From a virus (lineage: Duplodnaviria; Heunggongvirae; Uroviricota; Caudoviricetes), in the IMG/VR virus record IMGVR_UViG_2228664000_000050, positions 1-4,410 of that record: a stretch of DNA of 4,410 nt, one strand, 5' to 3'. Each line of letters starts with the position of its first letter. The stretch's first letter is position 1. A model generated the notes under the pieces. That model worked only from the letters and a program-made list of their open reading frames with translations. It had not been told where the DNA came from and searched no databases. A program made the translations under genes and the position numbers. Below, one piece after another: positions 1 through 4,410 of the stretch.

Positions 1-59
1 GATCGGGTGCCTTCGTTGACTTCAACAACGCGCACCCCGTGGTGGTAATCCTGAGCCAT
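1..59 (-). CDS. Tail sheath protein (P2 FI-like), N-terminal 19 codons only; gene continues beyond the window start
   Basis: Reverse complement of 1..59 translates MAQDYHHGVRVVEVNEGTR, matching my recollection of the conserved sheath N-terminus (MSDYHHGV...NEGTR). A strong Shine-Dalgarno AGGAGG lies about 9 nt upstream of the ATG (minus-strand coordinates 74..69). Confidence 0.6.
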   Translation of the reverse strand, partial: MAQDYHHGVRVVEVNEGTR

Positions 60-135
60 AGTGGCGAACCTCCTGATTGGATTAGGCTTCGCCCTATGTT
101 GAAGTGATTGTGCCTGACAAACAGCTAAGCGCAGT

Positions 136-153
136 TGTGTCGTTATTCACACA
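136..153 (-). promoter_or_regulatory. Candidate P2-type late-promoter activator site (TGT-N12-ACA dyad) upstream of the sheath gene
   Basis: The sequence TGTGTCGTTATTCACACA at 136..153 is an exact TGT-N12-ACA element with extended TGTG/CACA arms. It sits in the 142-bp gap between the invertase stop (202) and the sheath ATG (59), about 85 bp upstream of that ATG. No convincing -35 is present, which is typical of activator-dependent late promoters. The exact transcription start and -10 are not resolved. Confidence 0.4.
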
Positions 154-201
154 AAATAACGGTATTTGTCTGCTTGCAGGGATAATCAACATAATGCTGA
201 T

Positions 202-768
202 TCAGGGGGATTCATTGATCTTATTTGCCGGAAATTTTCTATAAATGGTAGAAACGCCTACATCAAAAATCAGTGCAATACGCTGTCTTGATTCTCCGGC
301 CTCGAGTAAACGCCCAATCTGTGCCCACTGTTCGGTAGTCAACTTAGGACGGCGTCCACCTACTCTGCCTTTGGCACGAGCTACAGCCAGCCCTGCCCTG
401 GTACGTTCAACTATCAGTTCGCGTTCCATTTCAGCCAGGGCACCCATGACATGAAAAAAGAAACGGCCCATTGGGGTACTGGTATCAATACTGTCAGTCA
501 GGCTTCTGAAATTCACACCACGCTGGCGCAACTCTTCTATCAGCGTAACAAGATGCCGCATACTGCGCCCCAACCTGTCCAGCTTCCAGACAACCAGCGT
601 GTCTCCTGCCGATAGTGTCCTGAGTAGTTTTTTCAGCCCCGGTCTGTCGGACTTAGTGCCACTGATTTTGTCCTCAAAAATCTGCTCACATCCCGCGCAG
701 TTCAGTGCATTACGTTGCAAATCGGTGTTCTGGTCATTTGTTGACACGCGTACATAGCCAATAAGCAT
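202..768 (-). CDS. Serine-recombinase DNA invertase (Pin/Gin/Cin/Hin family)
   Basis: The translation MLIGYVRVSTNDQNTDLQRNALNCAGCEQIFEDK...DRPGL...GDTLVVWKLDRLGRS...GRFFFHVMGALAEMERELIVERT has the catalytic-serine motif YVRVSTNDQ and a C-terminal helix-turn-helix (RIALIFDVGVSTIYRKF). The ORF opens at 774 (MIM...), but AGGGGG directly abuts that first ATG and lies 6 nt before the ATG at 768, which also reproduces the canonical MLIGYVRVS start. Confidence 0.93.
   Translation of the reverse strand: MLIGYVRVSTNDQNTDLQRNALNCAGCEQIFEDKISGTKSDRPGLKKLLRTLSAGDTLVVWKLDRLGRSMRHLVTLIEELRQRGVNFRSLTDSIDTSTPMGRFFFHVMGALAEMERELIVERTRAGLAVARAKGRVGGRRPKLTTEQWAQIGRLLEAGESRQRIALIFDVGVSTIYRKFPANKINESP
665..747. 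promoter_or_regulatory. Putative Fis-dependent recombinational enhancer inside the 5' part of the invertase gene
   Basis: In Hin, Gin and Cin the enhancer lies within the first ~100-150 bp of the invertase coding region. The matching region here (codons ~10-36, STNDQNTDLQRNALNCAGCEQIFED) contains a Fis-like G-N13-C 15-mer, GTGTCAACAAATGAC, on the minus strand at 733..747. The second Fis site is not clearly identifiable. Placement is by positional homology only. Confidence 0.3.
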
Positions 769-795
769 GATCATCCCCCTGAATAAAAACCGGAG

Positions 796-1302
796 ATGAT
801 GCCAGTTAGCTGTTACCTCTGCATTTTCTTAAACGTTGGTTTAGGAGAAGGTTCGGCATTACCCGTTGGTGTGCCTGTTCCGTGGCCTTCAGCTACACCA
901 CCGACAGGCTGGTTGAAATGCAATGGTGCAGCTTTTTCTGCTGAAGAATACCCGGAGCTGGCAAAGGCTTACCCGACAAATAAATTGCCTGATTTACGTG
1001 GTGAGTTTATTCGTGGCTGGGATGATGGGCGTGGAGTGGACAGTGGGCGAGCGTTATTGAGTGCTCAGAGCGATACGCTGCAAAATATTACAGGTAGCTT
1101 TTTGGATATGACCACGGGGCCAAATAATAATACTGTCGGCGCATTTACCTCTTCAACATTGACACCAAATCTCGCATCAATTGCGACAGGTGGTACATAT
1201 AAACAGGCGAATTATTATTTTGATGCATCACGTGTTGCCAGAACATCAACGGAAACACGTGCGCGAAATATTGCATTTAACTTTATCGTGAGGGCTGCAT
1301 AA
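796..1302 (+). CDS. Alternative tail-fibre C-terminal cassette (S'v-like, collar-type receptor-binding domain), promoterless and silent in this orientation; functional part begins at the crossover core near 837
   Basis: The frame opens just after a TAA at 784..786 and covers site 1. It encodes GLGEGSALPVGVPVPWPSATPPTGWLKCNGAAFSAEEYPELAKAY...LPDLRGEFIRGWDDGRGVDSGR, the pattern of the phage tail collar domain (CNG...YP.L...LPDLRG.F.RG). The only ribosome-binding candidate is a GGAG 0-3 nt from the ATGs, too close to be convincing. Its stop overlaps the downstream tfa start (TAATG at 1300..1304). Confidence 0.8.
   Translation: MMPVSCYLCIFLNVGLGEGSALPVGVPVPWPSATPPTGWLKCNGAAFSAEEYPELAKAYPTNKLPDLRGEFIRGWDDGRGVDSGRALLSAQSDTLQNITGSFLDMTTGPNNNTVGAFTSSTLTPNLASIATGGTYKQANYYFDASRVARTSTETRARNIAFNFIVRAA
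824..849. repeat. Invertase crossover site 1 (hix/gix/cix/pix-like 26-bp imperfect dyad) at the invertase-proximal border of the invertible segment
   Basis: TTTTCTTAAACG-TT-GGTTTAGGAGAA. Its reverse complement, TTCTCCTAAACCAACGTTTAAGAAAA, matches site 2 at 15 of the first 17 positions and fits the family pattern TTCTnnnAAACC-AA-GGTTTnnGAnAA. The central dinucleotide is TT at 836..837. Confidence 0.8.
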
Positions 1303-1904
1303 TGGATAACGCTGTATTAAATAGCGAGCTTATTGCCACGAAGGCGGGGAATATTACCGTCTATAGCTATGATGGTGAAACTCGGGAATATATTTCCACT
1401 TCAAATGAATATCTTGCCGTTGGTGTTGGTATCCCGGCATATTCCTGTCTGGATGAACCTGGTATACATAAGGCTGGTTATGCAATCTGCCGTTCGGCAG
1501 ATTTAAACTCATGGGAATATGTGCCAGACCATCGCGGTGAAATCGTCTATAACACCGAAACGGGAGACGCCAAAGAAATCACAGCTCCGGGTGATTACCC
1601 CGAAAATACAACCACTATCGCCCCGTTAACGCCATACGATAAATGGGATGGTGAGAAATGGGTGACGGATACCGAGGCACAGCATAGCGCCGCAGTAGAT
1701 GCAGCAGAAGCACAGCGCCAGTCGCTGATGGATACAGCAATGGCTTCCATTAGTCTGATTCAGTTGAAATTACAGGCCGGACGGAAGTTGACGCAGGCAG
1801 AAACAACCCGACTTAACGCCGTGCTGGATTACATTGACGCGGTGACGGCAACAGATACCAGCACAGCGCCGGACGTCATCTGGCCTGGACTGCCGGAGGC
1901 GTAG
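1302..1904 (+). CDS. Tail fibre assembly chaperone (Tfa/U'-like), cognate to the silent alternative cassette
   Basis: This 200-aa ORF is coupled to the upstream cassette by a TAATG overlap. Its C-terminus, TATDTSTAPDVIWPGLPEA, carries the conserved Tfa C-terminal motif that is also present in the other chaperone. Confidence 0.8.
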   Translation: MDNAVLNSELIATKAGNITVYSYDGETREYISTSNEYLAVGVGIPAYSCLDEPGIHKAGYAICRSADLNSWEYVPDHRGEIVYNTETGDAKEITAPGDYPENTTTIAPLTPYDKWDGEKWVTDTEAQHSAAVDAAEAQRQSLMDTAMASISLIQLKLQAGRKLTQAETTRLNAVLDYIDAVTATDTSTAPDVIWPGLPEA

Positions 1905-2319
1905 GCCATTCAATATCGGGTGCTGTTGAAGTATCAACACGCATCAGCAGCACACGGTATTTCTTCCATTGGGTGAGAGTTGAAGTTTCTTCATCAGTTG
2001 CAATGCCCGCATCAACAGCATCCTGACGCCAGGATATTTCACTGTCAGCTTTTGCACGAAATGTGGCTTTCATGTTTTCTGCATCTGATATTTTCTGTTC
2101 TGGTGAAAGCGGCGGCTCATCAACCCATGCAAGGGCCCCTGAAACCATTCTCAGCATTTTTCCTGTTGGCTTATTTCCCCCATTAAATCTGACAGCATCC
2201 TCATCGCTGATTTCAATACCATCCTGCGGCCATGTCCCCTCCTTGATATAACTTTCGTATAGCGCTGCGTTGTAGATTGCATTTTCGGAAGGGCTGTAAA
2301 CACTTTTAACTTTATTCAT
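1876..2319 (-). CDS. Tail fibre assembly chaperone (P2 G / Mu U-like), cognate to the currently expressed fibre
   Basis: This 147-aa ORF starts 4 bp after the tail-fibre stop, with GGGAGA about 6 nt upstream of its ATG. Its C-terminus, LLMRVDTSTAPDIEWPTPPAVQAR, resembles the P2 G C-terminus (RVDPANPEWP). Its 3' end overlaps the convergent tfa' by 29 bp (1876..1904). Confidence 0.85.
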   Translation of the reverse strand: MNKVKSVYSPSENAIYNAALYESYIKEGTWPQDGIEISDEDAVRFNGGNKPTGKMLRMVSGALAWVDEPPLSPEQKISDAENMKATFRAKADSEISWRQDAVDAGIATDEETSTLTQWKKYRVLLMRVDTSTAPDIEWPTPPAVQAR

Positions 2320-2323
2320 TCTG

Positions 2324-3763
2324 TTATCTCCCTTTCGCTATATAGCAAAGATTAAACCCACCGCTACCTGACATACGGGCTGTAAAACCCGTTCTTGAAG
2401 TACCAGTTGAGTTAACTCCATAAGCAGGCATGGTTGTTGGAGAAAGCAGAGACTCCTGGATATCTGCCATTGTCAGTGTAATTGATTCGACCCGCGCGGG
2501 GAAAGGTAGCGGGAAAACAACATTCGTCCCTGTCTGTCCAACGGGGAAACCGAAAATACCCCATTGTGTAATTACCCCATCCGGCCCCTTACTCCATCCA
2601 GATTTAGGATTCGGCCAGTCTGCTGCTCCAGAGTGCCCCGTTGTAAAACTACTCATATCTGGTACTTGCCCGGTATCCGTTCCGACGTTCCTCGTTGCCG
2701 CTTCTCCCAAACCAAGGTATGTGAGAAGACCAGCTACATCCTTTCCACTCAAATTGGTAAGCGTATTGTCCAGCGGTTGTTTACCTGACAGCGCATTAAG
2801 CATTGTCGTGGCAAAGTTCGGATCATTCCCCAGTGCCGCCGCCAGTTCGTTCAGTGTATCCAGTGCAGCAGGTGCAGAACCCACCATTCCTGCAATCGCC
2901 GATTTCACAAAAGCCGTAGTGGCAATCTGTGTATTGTTGACCGACTGCGCCGCAGTAGGTGCTGTTGGCGTTCCGGTGAGTGCCGGACTCGACAGCGGCG
3001 CTTTTAGTGCCAGCGCATTGTTAATGGTGGTACTGAATTTCGGGTCATTGTTAATGGCTGCGGCAATTTCTTTCAGTGTGTCCAGCGTGGCTGGCGCACC
3101 GTTAATCAGAGCAGTAATAGCGGCCTGAACAAACTCAGTGGTCGCAATCCGCGTGGTGTTATTTCCTGCTGCAGGCGTCGGCGCTTTTGGTTCTCCGGTA
3201 AATGTCGGATTATGTTTCTGCGCATACTGGGTATGAGGATCTTGTGCGGCAATGTGGTTTCTCATCTGGTCATCCACATACAGCTTTAATTCCAGGACTT
3301 CATCATCCACGTATTTACGGGTTGCCAGCACTACAGCAGGGTCGATTTTCAGGGTGATATTGTCCGTACTGCTGGTAATCAGCACCATGCGCACGGTCTG
3401 GGTGCGCCCGCTGCCTTCAGCCAGTTGCGGCTTATAGCTTTCCGGGCAGTTGCCCACGGCAATCAATGCCCCGGACTCATCAAACAGGCCCACTTCACGT
3501 ATCCACCAACCGCCCTCGTTTTCAGGGATCACCTGTTCAGCAATAATCTGGCTACTGTTCTGCGGGTCGATATAAAGCATATTCAGCGCAGCCCGGCGTT
3601 TCTCATTTACCAGTGCCGTCTGCTTTGCGTCCGGCGTTGGCAATACTCCGCCGCCATCGCCCACCGCCATATGGGTAATTTTTAGCGGCACACCGAGCGC
3701 GGCGGCGCTGGCAAGTTTCGCCGCGCCAATATCCGTCAGCAGGGTATAAAATTTTGTGCTCAT
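2324..3763 (-). CDS. Tail fibre protein (P2 H-like), 479 aa: constant N-terminal shaft (aa 1-350) fused to the currently expressed variable C-terminal cassette (aa 351-479)
   Basis: The N-terminus MSTKFYTLLTDIGAAKLA...MAVGDGGG...GGWWIREVGLFDESGALIAVGN...ESYKPQLAEGSGR and the block LNELAAALGNDPNFATTMLNALSGKQP closely match P2 H-type fibres. The start overlaps the gpI-like stop (ATGA). Crossover site 2 lies at codons 346-354. Confidence 0.95.
   Translation of the reverse strand: MSTKFYTLLTDIGAAKLASAAALGVPLKITHMAVGDGGGVLPTPDAKQTALVNEKRRAALNMLYIDPQNSSQIIAEQVIPENEGGWWIREVGLFDESGALIAVGNCPESYKPQLAEGSGRTQTVRMVLITSSTDNITLKIDPAVVLATRKYVDDEVLELKLYVDDQMRNHIAAQDPHTQYAQKHNPTFTGEPKAPTPAAGNNTTRIATTEFVQAAITALINGAPATLDTLKEIAAAINNDPKFSTTINNALALKAPLSSPALTGTPTAPTAAQSVNNTQIATTAFVKSAIAGMVGSAPAALDTLNELAAALGNDPNFATTMLNALSGKQPLDNTLTNLSGKDVAGLLTYLGLGEAATRNVGTDTGQVPDMSSFTTGHSGAADWPNPKSGWSKGPDGVITQWGIFGFPVGQTGTNVVFPLPFPARVESITLTMADIQESLLSPTTMPAYGVNSTGTSRTGFTARMSGSGGFNLCYIAKGR
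2702..2727. repeat. Invertase crossover site 2 (hix/gix/cix/pix-like) embedded in the tail-fibre coding sequence at the constant/variable junction
   Basis: TTCTCCCAAACC-AA-GGTATGTGAGAA. The left half and core match the family pattern, while the right half is degenerate, as expected for a site constrained by coding sequence. It lies over codons LLTYLGLGE; the core AA at 2714..2715 is codon positions 2-3 of Leu350 on the minus strand. Confidence 0.8.
2774..3178 (-). repeat. Diverged tandem duplication (~190 bp / ~60 aa unit, two copies) within the tail-fibre shaft (phage tail fibre repeat)
   Basis: Protein copy 1 (aa ~196-256) is TPAAGNNTTRIATTEFVQAAITALINGAPATLDTLKEIAAAINNDPKFSTTINNALALKAP. 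Copy 2 (aa ~266-330) is TPTAPTAAQSVNNTQIATTAFVKSAIAGMVGSAPAALDTLNELAAALGNDPNFATTMLNALSGKQP. DNA similarity is still visible, for example ttcagtgtgtccagcg at 3072..3087 versus ttcagtgtatccagtg at 2851..2866. Confidence 0.7.
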
Positions 3764-4365
3764 GGATTCACTCTCATTGTGTCAATAACATGGACCGCCC
3801 CGCCTTCATGCGCGGTGCCGCCGGAAATAATTGTTTCGTTGATATACGGATAGATCGTGATTTCTTCGCCAAGATAGCTGGCGGCTCCCACCCAATGCGG
3901 GCCGCTGGTCTGCAGGTTGATGGACATGCCGATCATGTGACGGCTACATGGTTTGGCATCGCTTATCAGTCGCTCAAGTTCCAGATAGGTATCTTCAGTG
4001 ATGCCCTGGTCCTGCACGCCGATATCCAGACGAAACGTGCCCGGTGCCTCTCCGATCTGCCACCACTCAATAATGCGGATCAGAAAGCCGAACGGCTCCA
4101 CCACCCGCCGCACGGCACTGGTGGTCCCTTTATGCTGATGAATATAAAAAGCATCCTTCACCACCTGGCGCTTGACGCTTTCTGTCCAGCCCTCGTCCCA
4201 GCGATCCACAGAGAACGCCCAGGCGAGATAAGGCAGGAAACTGATCGGACAGGTTGCCGGATTCCACAAGTCACGCAGCGGCACCTGCAGATCAGAAATC
4301 CCGCTACAGGTCTGCGCCAGTCGGCGCTCCAGTGAAGTTGAACCCGGTGGCAGCAGACTATTCAT
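3760..4365 (-). CDS. Baseplate/tail protein, P2 gpI-like (201 aa)
   Basis: The translation contains LWNPATCP...LPYLAWAFSVDRWDEGW...HKGT...RRVVEPFGFL...WW...PGTFRLDIGV...GITE...ERLISDAKPCSRH, matching my recollection of P2 gpI. It is coupled at both ends by ATGA overlaps and sits immediately upstream of the tail fibre gene, as in P2 (J-I-H-G). Confidence 0.85.
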   Translation of the reverse strand: MNSLLPPGSTSLERRLAQTCSGISDLQVPLRDLWNPATCPISFLPYLAWAFSVDRWDEGWTESVKRQVVKDAFYIHQHKGTTSAVRRVVEPFGFLIRIIEWWQIGEAPGTFRLDIGVQDQGITEDTYLELERLISDAKPCSRHMIGMSINLQTSGPHWVGAASYLGEEITIYPYINETIISGGTAHEGGAVHVIDTMRVNP

Positions 4366-4410
4366 CCGTTCCTCCGTTGGTTACGCTCCACTGCGTACAT
4401 GATGCCGCCT
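4362..4410 (-). CDS. 3' end of the upstream gene, probably the baseplate J-like protein (C-terminal 15 codons plus stop)
   Basis: An open frame enters from the window edge on the minus strand (GGIMYAVERNQRRNG-stop), and its TGA overlaps the ATG of the gpI-like gene. Identity is inferred from P2-type gene order only; 15 residues are too few to assign by sequence. Confidence 0.45.
   Translation of the reverse strand, partial: GGIMYAVERNQRRNG

Follow-up and report, generated by a model that had tools for sequence, protein, structure and literature searches.

Organisation of the locus

The window, by which we mean the whole stretch of DNA analysed here (4,410 nucleotides), has all of its tail genes on the minus strand, and the coordinates below are given on the plus strand. 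Read along the minus strand, it presents the end of a gpJ-like gene, a gpI-like gene, an H-like fibre gene and a tail fibre assembly (Tfa) chaperone gene, followed by a silent cassette carried on the plus strand, a serine invertase gene, a predicted late-promoter region and the start of the sheath gene. The edges of the window fall within the J and FI genes, so that only 19 codons of the sheath gene are covered. The features are as follows.

1-59, minus strand: tail sheath gene (FI-like), first 19 codons, MAQDYHHGVRVVEVNEGTR
60-201, minus strand: predicted late-promoter region of the sheath operon, 142 bp, with a TGT-N12-ACA dyad at 136-153 and AGGAGG before the ATG
202-768, minus strand: Gin/Fin-type serine DNA invertase, 188 aa (Resolvase PF00239, E 8.8e-53, and HTH_7 PF02796)
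769-823, minus strand: spacer from the left crossover site to the invertase start, aligning with the Mu gixR-gin and Fels-2 spacers
824-849, minus strand: left crossover site, 26 bp, reading TTCTCCTAAACC AA CGTTTAAGAAAA on the minus strand, core at 836-837
837-1302, plus strand: silent alternative fibre tip, 154 codons past the core, with a Collar domain (PF07484, E 1.6e-15)
1302-1904, plus strand: silent alternative chaperone, 200 aa (PF02413, E 3.8e-32)
1876-2319, minus strand: expressed tail fibre assembly chaperone (Tfa), 147 aa (PF02413, E 8.4e-33)
2324-3763, minus strand: H-like fibre gene, 479 aa (PF12571, E 5.9e-65)
2324-2701, minus strand: expressed variable fibre tip, residues ~351-479, with a Gp53-like C-terminal domain (PF21882, E 1.8e-9, residues 394-478)
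2702-2727, plus strand: right crossover site, 26 bp, inside the fibre gene, reading TTCTCCCAAACC AA GGTATGTGAGAA, core dinucleotide at 2714-2715
2728-3763, minus strand: constant part of the H-like fibre, about 345-350 residues, comprising the baseplate-attachment domain (PF12571, residues 1-150) and the shaft
3760-4365, minus strand: gpI-like tail/baseplate protein, 201 aa (PF09684, E 1.5e-53)
4358-4410, minus strand: 3' end of a gpJ-like baseplate gene, whose last 16 aa are 50% identical to the P2 J C-terminus

The P2-family tail module

The open reading frames and their domains, set against the P2, Fels-2 and 186 records, reveal the J-I-H-G-FI order on one strand that is found in the P2 family (Peduoviridae). 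The earlier note had recognised the P2 late-gene order here, in the setting of a P2-like prophage, and had proposed a comparison of the structural proteins with those of P2. All the elements of that order are indeed present, and the P2-family identity is borne out both by the families assigned in Pfam and NCBIfam and by BLAST, which matches the proteins to P2 I, H, G, J and FI. The gpI-like protein belongs to the tail_P2_I family, scoring 188 bits against a cutoff of 30 for the equivalog TIGR01634, and its gene overlaps that of the J-like protein by 8 nt at the gpI start, as in P2. The J-like stretch is annotated as a baseplate assembly protein in a relative that is 96.8% identical to the window, and a protein identical to gpI is indexed in 1,376 blocks of an assembly collection; an exact look-up of the 479-aa fibre protein returned no contig. 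At the other edge, the sheath start matches Fels-2 FI at 18 of 19 residues and P2 FI at 13 of 16, and the corresponding stretch is annotated as a phage tail sheath protein in relatives.

With regard to the fibre, its N-terminal domain is of the P2 H type, residues 1-353 being 52% identical to P2 H 1-363 (E 7e-101), while the constant part is 82% identical to Fels-2 H. Judged by sequence identity, the module is nearer to Fels-2 than to P2, since the gpI-like protein shares 92% of its residues with Fels-2 I but only 56-57% with P2 I and 56% with its counterpart in 186.

The window contains tail genes only, a content that would also be expected of a defective prophage or an R-type tailocin cluster, in which a switch would diversify the killing spectrum and not the host range. 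Tail clusters of the P2 type in which fibre cassettes are inverted are frequent among Photorhabdus and Xenorhabdus loci, and tailocins with fibre inversion figure in the literature (reference list of PMC4272514; title of PMC13280938). However, the nearest relatives of the window are complete P2/186-like prophages and Peduoviridae phages, and the closest of them are full-length prophages that carry capsid, terminase, lysis, replication and immunity genes and are 96.8% identical over the whole window and 99.5% over its flanks, which makes a tailocin or defective cluster very unlikely. We regard the window, with a high degree of confidence, as the baseplate-fibre-sheath junction of a Fels-2-type P2-family prophage that carries a host-range switch resembling the G segment of Mu.

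The crossover sites and the two fibre cassettes

A consensus pattern search recovered two sites of the Gin/Hin type in inverted orientation, both with the core AA, where 0.01 would be expected by chance. Too short and too imperfect, these crossover sites escaped a generic repeat finder run on the window. The right site encodes the residues LTYLGLGE within the fibre and has homologues in Fels-2 H, E. coli 22-245 and phage 500465-1, the Mu gix site being comparable; the left site lines up collinearly with gixR of Mu and with the site that lies upstream of fin in Fels-2. The base beside the core is C in the left site and G in the right, and the outer half-site is weaker on the left, features that are also present in relatives known in both orientations.

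The two sites bound an invertible segment of 1,878 bp (837-2714), which contains two cassettes facing each other. The expressed one holds the variable tip and the 147-aa chaperone, the C-terminal part of which is 36-40% identical to P2 G and 43% identical to Mu U. The silent one holds the collar-domain tip and the 200-aa chaperone, named tfaE by PGAP in a relative, which runs convergently into the active chaperone gene, with an overlap of 29 bp at its 3' end. PADLOC, NCBIfam and PHROGs searches added nothing for the cassettes of the window.

A simulated inversion yields an in-frame fibre of 504 aa with the 200-aa chaperone gene directly downstream, so that the flip exchanges in-frame fibre C-termini together with their cognate chaperones. 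The same exchange is seen in the naturally flipped states of loci L002 and L084, the latter of which, like phage 500465-1, carries the same cassettes as the window in the flipped state. Among relatives, the homology breakpoints fall exactly at the two crossover sites, where the homology of the constant part of the fibre also ends, and flanks that are nearly identical are found around either orientation. What is demonstrated is the anatomy, the compatibility of the reading frames, the homologies and the existence of both orientations in natural relatives. The silent tip lacks a relevant start and is read only once the segment has been inverted; the plus-strand open reading frame at 796-1302, annotated as a phage tail protein, is a promoterless fibre tip and not an independent gene.

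The DNA invertase and its putative regulatory region

The invertase gene lies outside the invertible segment. Its product has the resolvase domain and C-terminal helix-turn-helix of a small serine recombinase, retains the catalytic-serine motif YVRVSTNDQ and matches the Mu Gin structures 3uj3/4m6f over its full length (E 1e-92). It is 86% identical to Fels-2 Fin, reportedly the subject of a 2006 paper by Kutsukake, and 75% identical to Mu Gin. An alternative upstream ATG is found at 774. The spacer between the left crossover site and the gene (769-823) contains a terminator-like hairpin at 788-807 and presumably holds a putative invertase promoter and ribosome-binding site.

In Gin/Hin systems, the Fis-bound recombinational enhancer is located in the 5' part of the invertase gene. 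In the window, this part is 82% identical to gin over the first 60 coding nucleotides and 60-67% identical over nucleotides 61-180. A simple Fis-motif scan of the invertase gene returned conserved Fis-like 15-mers at comparable positions, with a spacing unlike that expected. By analogy with these systems, inversion in the window copy would depend on Fis and on an enhancer of this kind.

A probable two-state tail fibre switch

These elements suggest a mechanism in which the Gin/Fin-type invertase (202-768) would pair the two 26-bp inverted crossover sites that share the core AA and invert the 1,878-bp segment between them, swapping the fibre tip together with its chaperone. In the present orientation, the constant part of about 350 residues would be fused to the Gp53-like tip, with the 147-aa chaperone following, and in the flipped orientation the same constant part would be fused in frame to the collar-domain tip, giving the 504-aa fibre, with the 200-aa chaperone downstream. 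Since there are two alternative tip/chaperone states, a prophage population would make virions with two receptor specificities, and the switch would thus affect host range. Inversion has been detected experimentally, with read-level evidence, in P2-like prophages of E. coli E2348/69 (PMC4272514), and the window copy is probably active as well.

A frozen relic, in which the cassettes and the invertase have been kept, inversion has ceased and the silent cassette is a pseudogene remnant, would have several counterparts in the family. In phage 186, a "Mu-like inversion crossover site" is annotated in K with no invertase to go with it, P2 H has a degenerate site at 13857-13882, and both of these relic sites occupy a position in the fibre equivalent to that of the window's site. 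Furthermore, locus L004 combines a truncated invertase with a single crossover site, and the Fels-2 record itself annotates the silent fibre part as a probable pseudogene. In the window, the invertase is of full length and keeps its catalytic motif, neither crossover site is damaged and their cores agree, and the reading frames of the two cassettes are open and give an in-frame fusion; together with the two orientations found between near-identical flanks in other genomes, this makes a relic quite unlikely. The correct annotation is that of a two-state invertible tail-fibre locus, with a constant fibre part, two tip/chaperone cassettes and a Fin/Gin-type invertase, and beyond this correct annotation its importance is small.

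Relation to Fels-2, Mu and other invertible segments

The arrangement has already been described, for Fels-2, and the window is an ordinary P2-family prophage tail region. In Salmonella phage Fels-2 (NC_010463, STM2701-STM2708), the order is likewise J, I, H, G, silent G'/H' on the opposite strand, invertase and FI, and the lengths of I (606 nt), J (909 nt) and FI (1173 nt) are those of the window's closest relative. The crossover sites are homologous, and the one in Fels-2 H encodes the same LTYLGLGE; however, the variable cassettes differ and the core dinucleotide is GA in Fels-2 and AA in the window. The fibre shaft of the window matches one stretch of Fels-2 H twice, suggesting an extra repeat unit.

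The G segment/Gin system of Mu shares the same plan, with a constant fibre part, a site, a tip and chaperone, an inverted second chaperone and tip, a second site and, outside the segment, an invertase on the fibre strand. In the Mu record, the genes run S-U / U'-S' / gin and the boundaries of the G segment lie inside S, a layout that is also that of the window. The 26-bp sites share a consensus and the stretch from site through spacer to invertase is collinear. Conversely, the segment is about 3 kb in Mu and 1.9 kb in the window, the core is TC/GA in Mu and AA in the window, and the host element here is not Mu but one of the P2 family with a P2 H-like constant fibre part. The P1 C segment/Cin and the e14 P segment/Pin are grouped with the Mu G segment/Gin as comparable systems.

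The slot between the chaperone and sheath genes

The interval between the chaperone stop and the sheath ATG spans 1,816 bp (60-1875). The P2 G-fun(Z)-FI and 186 orf-pJ intervals have the same flanking genes and, before the sheath gene, the same TGT-N12-ACA dyad, which in the window marks a putative late promoter, and differ in their content, with a 1.6-kb fun(Z) in P2, only a terminator and promoter (128 bp) in 186, and the silent cassette and invertase in the window. The earlier note had placed Z/fun in this interval in P2, as the P2 record does, and had called it a variable cargo hotspot, in agreement with two publications that describe the G-FI slot as an accessory or defence hotspot (PMC13586616; bioRxiv 10.1101/2024.10.15.618418), the second of which adds that a DNA invertase is often found there. 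Rousset 2022 (PMC9122126) describes the gpA-gpQ hotspot and mentions two known variable loci of P2-like phages that carry anti-phage genes, without naming Z/fun. The claim that the switch fills the gap between the chaperone and sheath genes holds for the silent cassette and the invertase, which do lie there, but the switch is not confined to it, since one crossover site falls within the fibre gene, and the active chaperone is part of the flipped segment, as are the last 129 codons of the fibre.

Of the interval, 1,625 bp are assigned, and the 191 bp left over, found only at 60-201 and 775-823, leave no room for another gene. The list of open reading frames of the window shows no accessory gene beyond the known ones between the chaperone gene and the sheath promoter, and no protein of the window was matched in PADLOC as a defence gene. 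With so little of the interval unassigned and no PADLOC match, there is no hidden cargo, and the absence of cryptic defence genes noticed at first reading is borne out. In the slot that P2 devotes to fun(Z), the window encodes no further gene. For defence-gene mining of P2-like prophages this copy can be dismissed because its Z/fun slot is without cargo.

The comparison of the G-FI interval across related prophages that the earlier note had suggested gives a picture of what alternates with the switch. The sheath type of the window is present in 984 of 5,426 complete E. coli genomes, and the junction between invertase and sheath gene in 697 of these (about 70% of related prophages). In genomes with this sheath type and no such junction, the slot is empty or carries other cargo, namely an acyltransferase, a toxin-antitoxin-like pair or a Tad2-like protein. 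It is conceivable, if doubtful, that these few kilobases are contested between the host-range switch on one side and accessory or defence cargo on the other, so that losing one accompanies gaining the other. L004 would be an example of such competition, in that a low-GC gene of 290 aa has taken the place of the silent cassette and of half the invertase. If this were true, the window would be one more copy in the "switch" state, with nothing new in itself.

The predicted late-promoter region of the sheath operon

Small plus-strand open reading frames (41-69 aa) at 104-454 and a sub-threshold Rfam match to IS009 at 1925-2114 could point to a small accessory element, a small protein or an sRNA, in the 142 bp upstream of the sheath gene or antisense to the invertase. 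The open reading frames, however, are antisense to the conserved invertase gene, PADLOC is without a match, and the 142 bp have aligned counterparts in the late-promoter regions of 186 and Fels-2, so that an element of this kind is extremely improbable. The IS009 match, obtained at a permissive threshold, was rejected, since it reaches 50 bits where the gathering score is 117 and falls within the chaperone coding sequence.

The 142 bp are better read as a late-promoter region. When the sequences are aligned, the dyad at 136-153 coincides in register with the site annotated for B-protein binding at the phage 186 promoter pJ (14091-14110) and with its Fels-2 equivalent, and the spacing from the dyad to the ATG matches that of P2 pF. 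In Ogr/B-dependent late promoters of the P2 family, the TGT-N12-ACA element is centred at about -55. From these alignments, the sheath operon probably keeps its own putative Ogr/B-activated late promoter between the invertase and sheath genes.

Organisation of the tail-gene block

The element is confirmed as a standard Fels-2-type invertible tail-fibre locus, which is already known and common, and is without hidden cargo. ORF and domain annotation identified the minus strand of the window as one tail-gene block, accompanied by a plus-strand ("silent") cassette and two crossover sites:

4358-4410, minus: gpJ-like gene, last 17 codons, with an 8-nt overlap with the gpI-like gene
3760-4365, minus: gpI-like gene, 201 aa (PF09684, E 1.5e-53; TIGR01634, 188 bits against a cutoff of 30), with a 4-nt overlap with the fibre gene
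2324-3763, minus: fibre gene, 479 aa; its N-terminal domain is of the P2 H type (PF12571, E 5.9e-65), its C-terminal tip Gp53-like
2702-2727, plus: right crossover site, TTCTCCCAAACC-AA-GGTATGTGAGAA
1876-2319, minus: active tail fibre assembly chaperone, 147 aa (PF02413), next after the fibre gene
1302-1904, plus: silent chaperone, 200 aa (PF02413)
ending at 1302, plus: silent fibre tip, Collar domain
824-849, minus: left crossover site, TTCTCCTAAACC-AA-CGTTTAAGAAAA
202-768, minus: serine recombinase (invertase), 188 aa, Resolvase and HTH_7 domains
between invertase and sheath start: non-coding DNA, 142 bp
1-59, minus: sheath gene, first 19 codons

Together with the P2 record, where the order is J-I-H-G-fun(Z)-FI, these ORFs and domains bear out the P2 late-gene order (J, I, H, G, sheath start) that an earlier note had read from the sequence. 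The structural proteins are also P2-like, as that note had proposed: the gpI-like protein is 57% identical to P2 gpI (E 3e-75), fibre residues 1-353 are 52% identical to P2 H 1-363 (E 7e-101), and the C-terminus of the active chaperone is 36% identical to P2 G. Among reference phages the nearest proteins are those of Fels-2 (gpI 92%, constant part of H 82%, sheath N-terminus 18/19 residues), whose record has the same gene order as the window, including the invertase adjoining FI. The internal layout also agrees with the Mu record, which has S, U, inverted U' and S', then gin on the S strand, and the G boundaries within S. The U and U' genes of Mu lie 28 bp apart, whereas the 3' ends of the convergent chaperone genes share 29 bp in the window (1876-1904), an overlap also found in the relatives L001 and L084-L088.

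With regard to the fibre shaft (window about 2740-3200, fibre residues ~185-350), it seems to carry one repeat unit (..APATLDTL.E.AAA.NNDP.F..) more than Fels-2 H, since there is a second alignment, at 78%, between residues 259-350 and Fels-2 H 185-276.

The inversion switch

A consensus search found two 26-bp Gin/Hin-type crossover sites in the window (0.01 matches expected by chance), which are mutually inverted and have the AA core in common. When the sequence was cut in silico at the cores and 837-2714 inverted, the constant 350 fibre residues joined the collar tip in frame; the resulting fibre has 504 aa, and its stop overlaps with the start of the 200-aa chaperone. The switch had been placed in the chaperone-sheath gap, and the silent cassette, left crossover site and invertase do lie there, with the putative sheath promoter; the right site, however, falls within the fibre gene, so that inversion takes in the active chaperone together with the final 129 codons of the fibre. 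The earlier interpretation is supported, with this geometry corrected.

Degenerate or annotated sites are also present in other phages. P2 H contains a gix-like site, TTATCGAATATCTCGGTTTACAGGAA (L003, 13857-13882), which encodes ..IEYLGLQET.. and sits where homology to the window fibre stops, and the 186 record (L092, 12962-12987) has a 'Mu-like inversion crossover site' marked within fibre gene K.

Residues 1-184 of the invertase match the Mu Gin crystal-structure sequences (3uj3, 4m6f; E 1e-92), the active-site motif YVRVSTNDQ is intact, and identity is 75% to Gin and 86% to Fels-2 Fin. Its start was assigned to 768, and an alternative at 774 set aside, because crossover site, spacer and invertase start align collinearly with Mu gixR-gin and with Fels-2. 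A Fis-dependent enhancer is expected in the 5' part of the invertase gene, as for Gin and Hin. Fis-like 15-mers occur at similar positions in the three invertase genes compared, with a spacing that is not convincing as an enhancer.

The 142-bp interval contains a TGT-N12-ACA dyad at 136-153 and AGGAGG ahead of the sheath ATG. In alignment, the dyad coincides with the B-protein binding site annotated for 186 pJ (14091-14110) and with the equivalent Fels-2 sequence, and its distance to the start codon is similar to that of P2 pF. From sequence, we infer that this interval functions as the sheath promoter region.

Closest relatives and both orientations

The window has no identical counterpart among complete E. 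coli genomes. Strain 22-245 comes closest (96.8% across all 4,410 bp), and its copy sits in a complete 186/Fels-2-like prophage that adjoins ybjL, extends from ogr to cI and includes genes for capsid, terminase, lysis and replication. The index of the assembly collection lists the exact gpI protein in 1,376 blocks, and all six gpI places among the matches listed have I, H and Tfa (the assembly chaperone), then Tfa' and tip' in inverted orientation, then resolvase and sheath, with differing cassette combinations. When loci of these relatives were queried by BLAST with the window and its simulated flipped form, identity in the flanks was 99.3-99.6% and extended precisely to the crossover sites (about 2701 and 850 on the plus strand), and one relative, L084, was contiguous with the flipped form over the right junction. 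Furthermore, both of the window's cassettes occur in opposite orientation in phage 500465-1 (Peduoviridae, Wadgaonvirus). Goldberg et al. have shown by sequencing that orientations coexist in P2-like prophages of E. coli E2348/69 (PMC4272514).

The phage 500465-1 deposit (NC_049342.1) appears to be an unpolished prophage excerpt; positions 1-9700 of this locus (L002) hold the host flank genes ffh-like, grpE, nadK, recN, bamE and smpB, annotated as phage genes, and IS fragments.

Content of the chaperone-sheath interval

The Z/fun locus of P2, which occupies this slot, has been named as an accessory/defence site (PMC13586616). The earlier note saw no cryptic defence cargo in this copy, and this holds: 1,625 of the 1,816 bp from chaperone stop to sheath ATG are assigned, the rest being 142 bp of putative promoter region and a spacer of 49 bp ahead of the invertase, and further slot ORFs of at least 40 aa are short and lie within or antisense to assigned genes. 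PADLOC matched none of the six window proteins. Rfam returned nothing on the window but a sub-threshold IS009 match (1925-2114, minus; 50 bits against a gathering score of 117, E 1.3e-9). This match lies entirely within the active chaperone coding sequence and probably reflects sequence homology to a prophage tfa remnant and not an RNA gene.

Alternative occupants of the slot

An iLund4u preprint describes the Z/fun hotspot as swapping tail fibre and assembly genes, and as often encoding a DNA invertase along with inversion of adjacent genes (10.1101/2024.10.15.618418). This sheath type is present in 984 of 5,426 complete E. coli genomes, and the invertase-promoter-sheath junction, counted at coverage of at least 80%, in 697, about 70% of the carriers. 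Among the genomes without the junction, for example, RM10466 and A37 have compact loci in which the promoter follows straight after the chaperone, and CFT073 has an acyltransferase. In other Enterobacterales species, 80 loci were found with the sheath protein, and in 55 of these gpI and the sheath gene lay on a single stretch.

Rough classification of slot content among the 55 loci
Compact: 15
Gin-like invertase with paired sites: 3
Decayed invertase module (L004): 1
Inverted fibre/chaperone cassettes, no invertase match adjoining the sheath (mostly Photorhabdus, Xenorhabdus): 11
Other cargo: 13
Not classed by the probes used: 12

The other cargo comprises Acyl_transf_3, YhgA-like, a Gp49 + HTH_37 pair with extra HTH proteins, Tad2-like + DUF7823, and unannotated hydrophobic proteins. 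Since cargo and classes differ among the surveyed loci, with compact, invertase and other-cargo states, slot content is indeed variable, as the first reading had it.

Several individual loci deserve description. In L004 (Escherichia sp. MOD1-EC7003), a close relative with a 98% identical sheath, a 290-aa ORF (8556-9428, minus; GC 0.36 against 0.55-0.57 in the flanks) stands in place of the silent cassette, left crossover site and 5' half of the invertase, leaving just a single crossover site and the final ~91 codons of the invertase. This ORF has no Pfam, PADLOC or NCBIfam match, and only weak matches to PHROG families without known function. In eight Photorhabdus and Xenorhabdus P2-type tail loci (L051, L056, L064, L067, L068, L070, L072, L077), the region upstream of the sheath at about 10004 combines fibre-tip/chaperone cassettes in inverted orientation with pairs of crossover-like sites, and tblastn found no invertase adjoining the sheath; their invertase may be located elsewhere. 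Silent tips in several of them start with ..NLGL.ETV.., the motif encoded by the crossover site. In Xenorhabdus L065 (8428-9210) and L074 (8947-9768), the slot protein has a Tad2-like (Thoeris anti-defence) domain and DUF7823. The slot of Photorhabdus L055 (9069-9763; also L057, L063 and L079) holds two HTH_3 proteins and a Gp49 (DUF891) + HTH_37 gene pair similar to a toxin-antitoxin module. Finally, E. coli RM10466 (L094, 11884-12690) has a DUF6216 family gene, oppositely oriented and flanked by the V-like baseplate and S-like tail completion genes; P2 has orf30 in this place, which makes it another variable slot of this prophage lineage.
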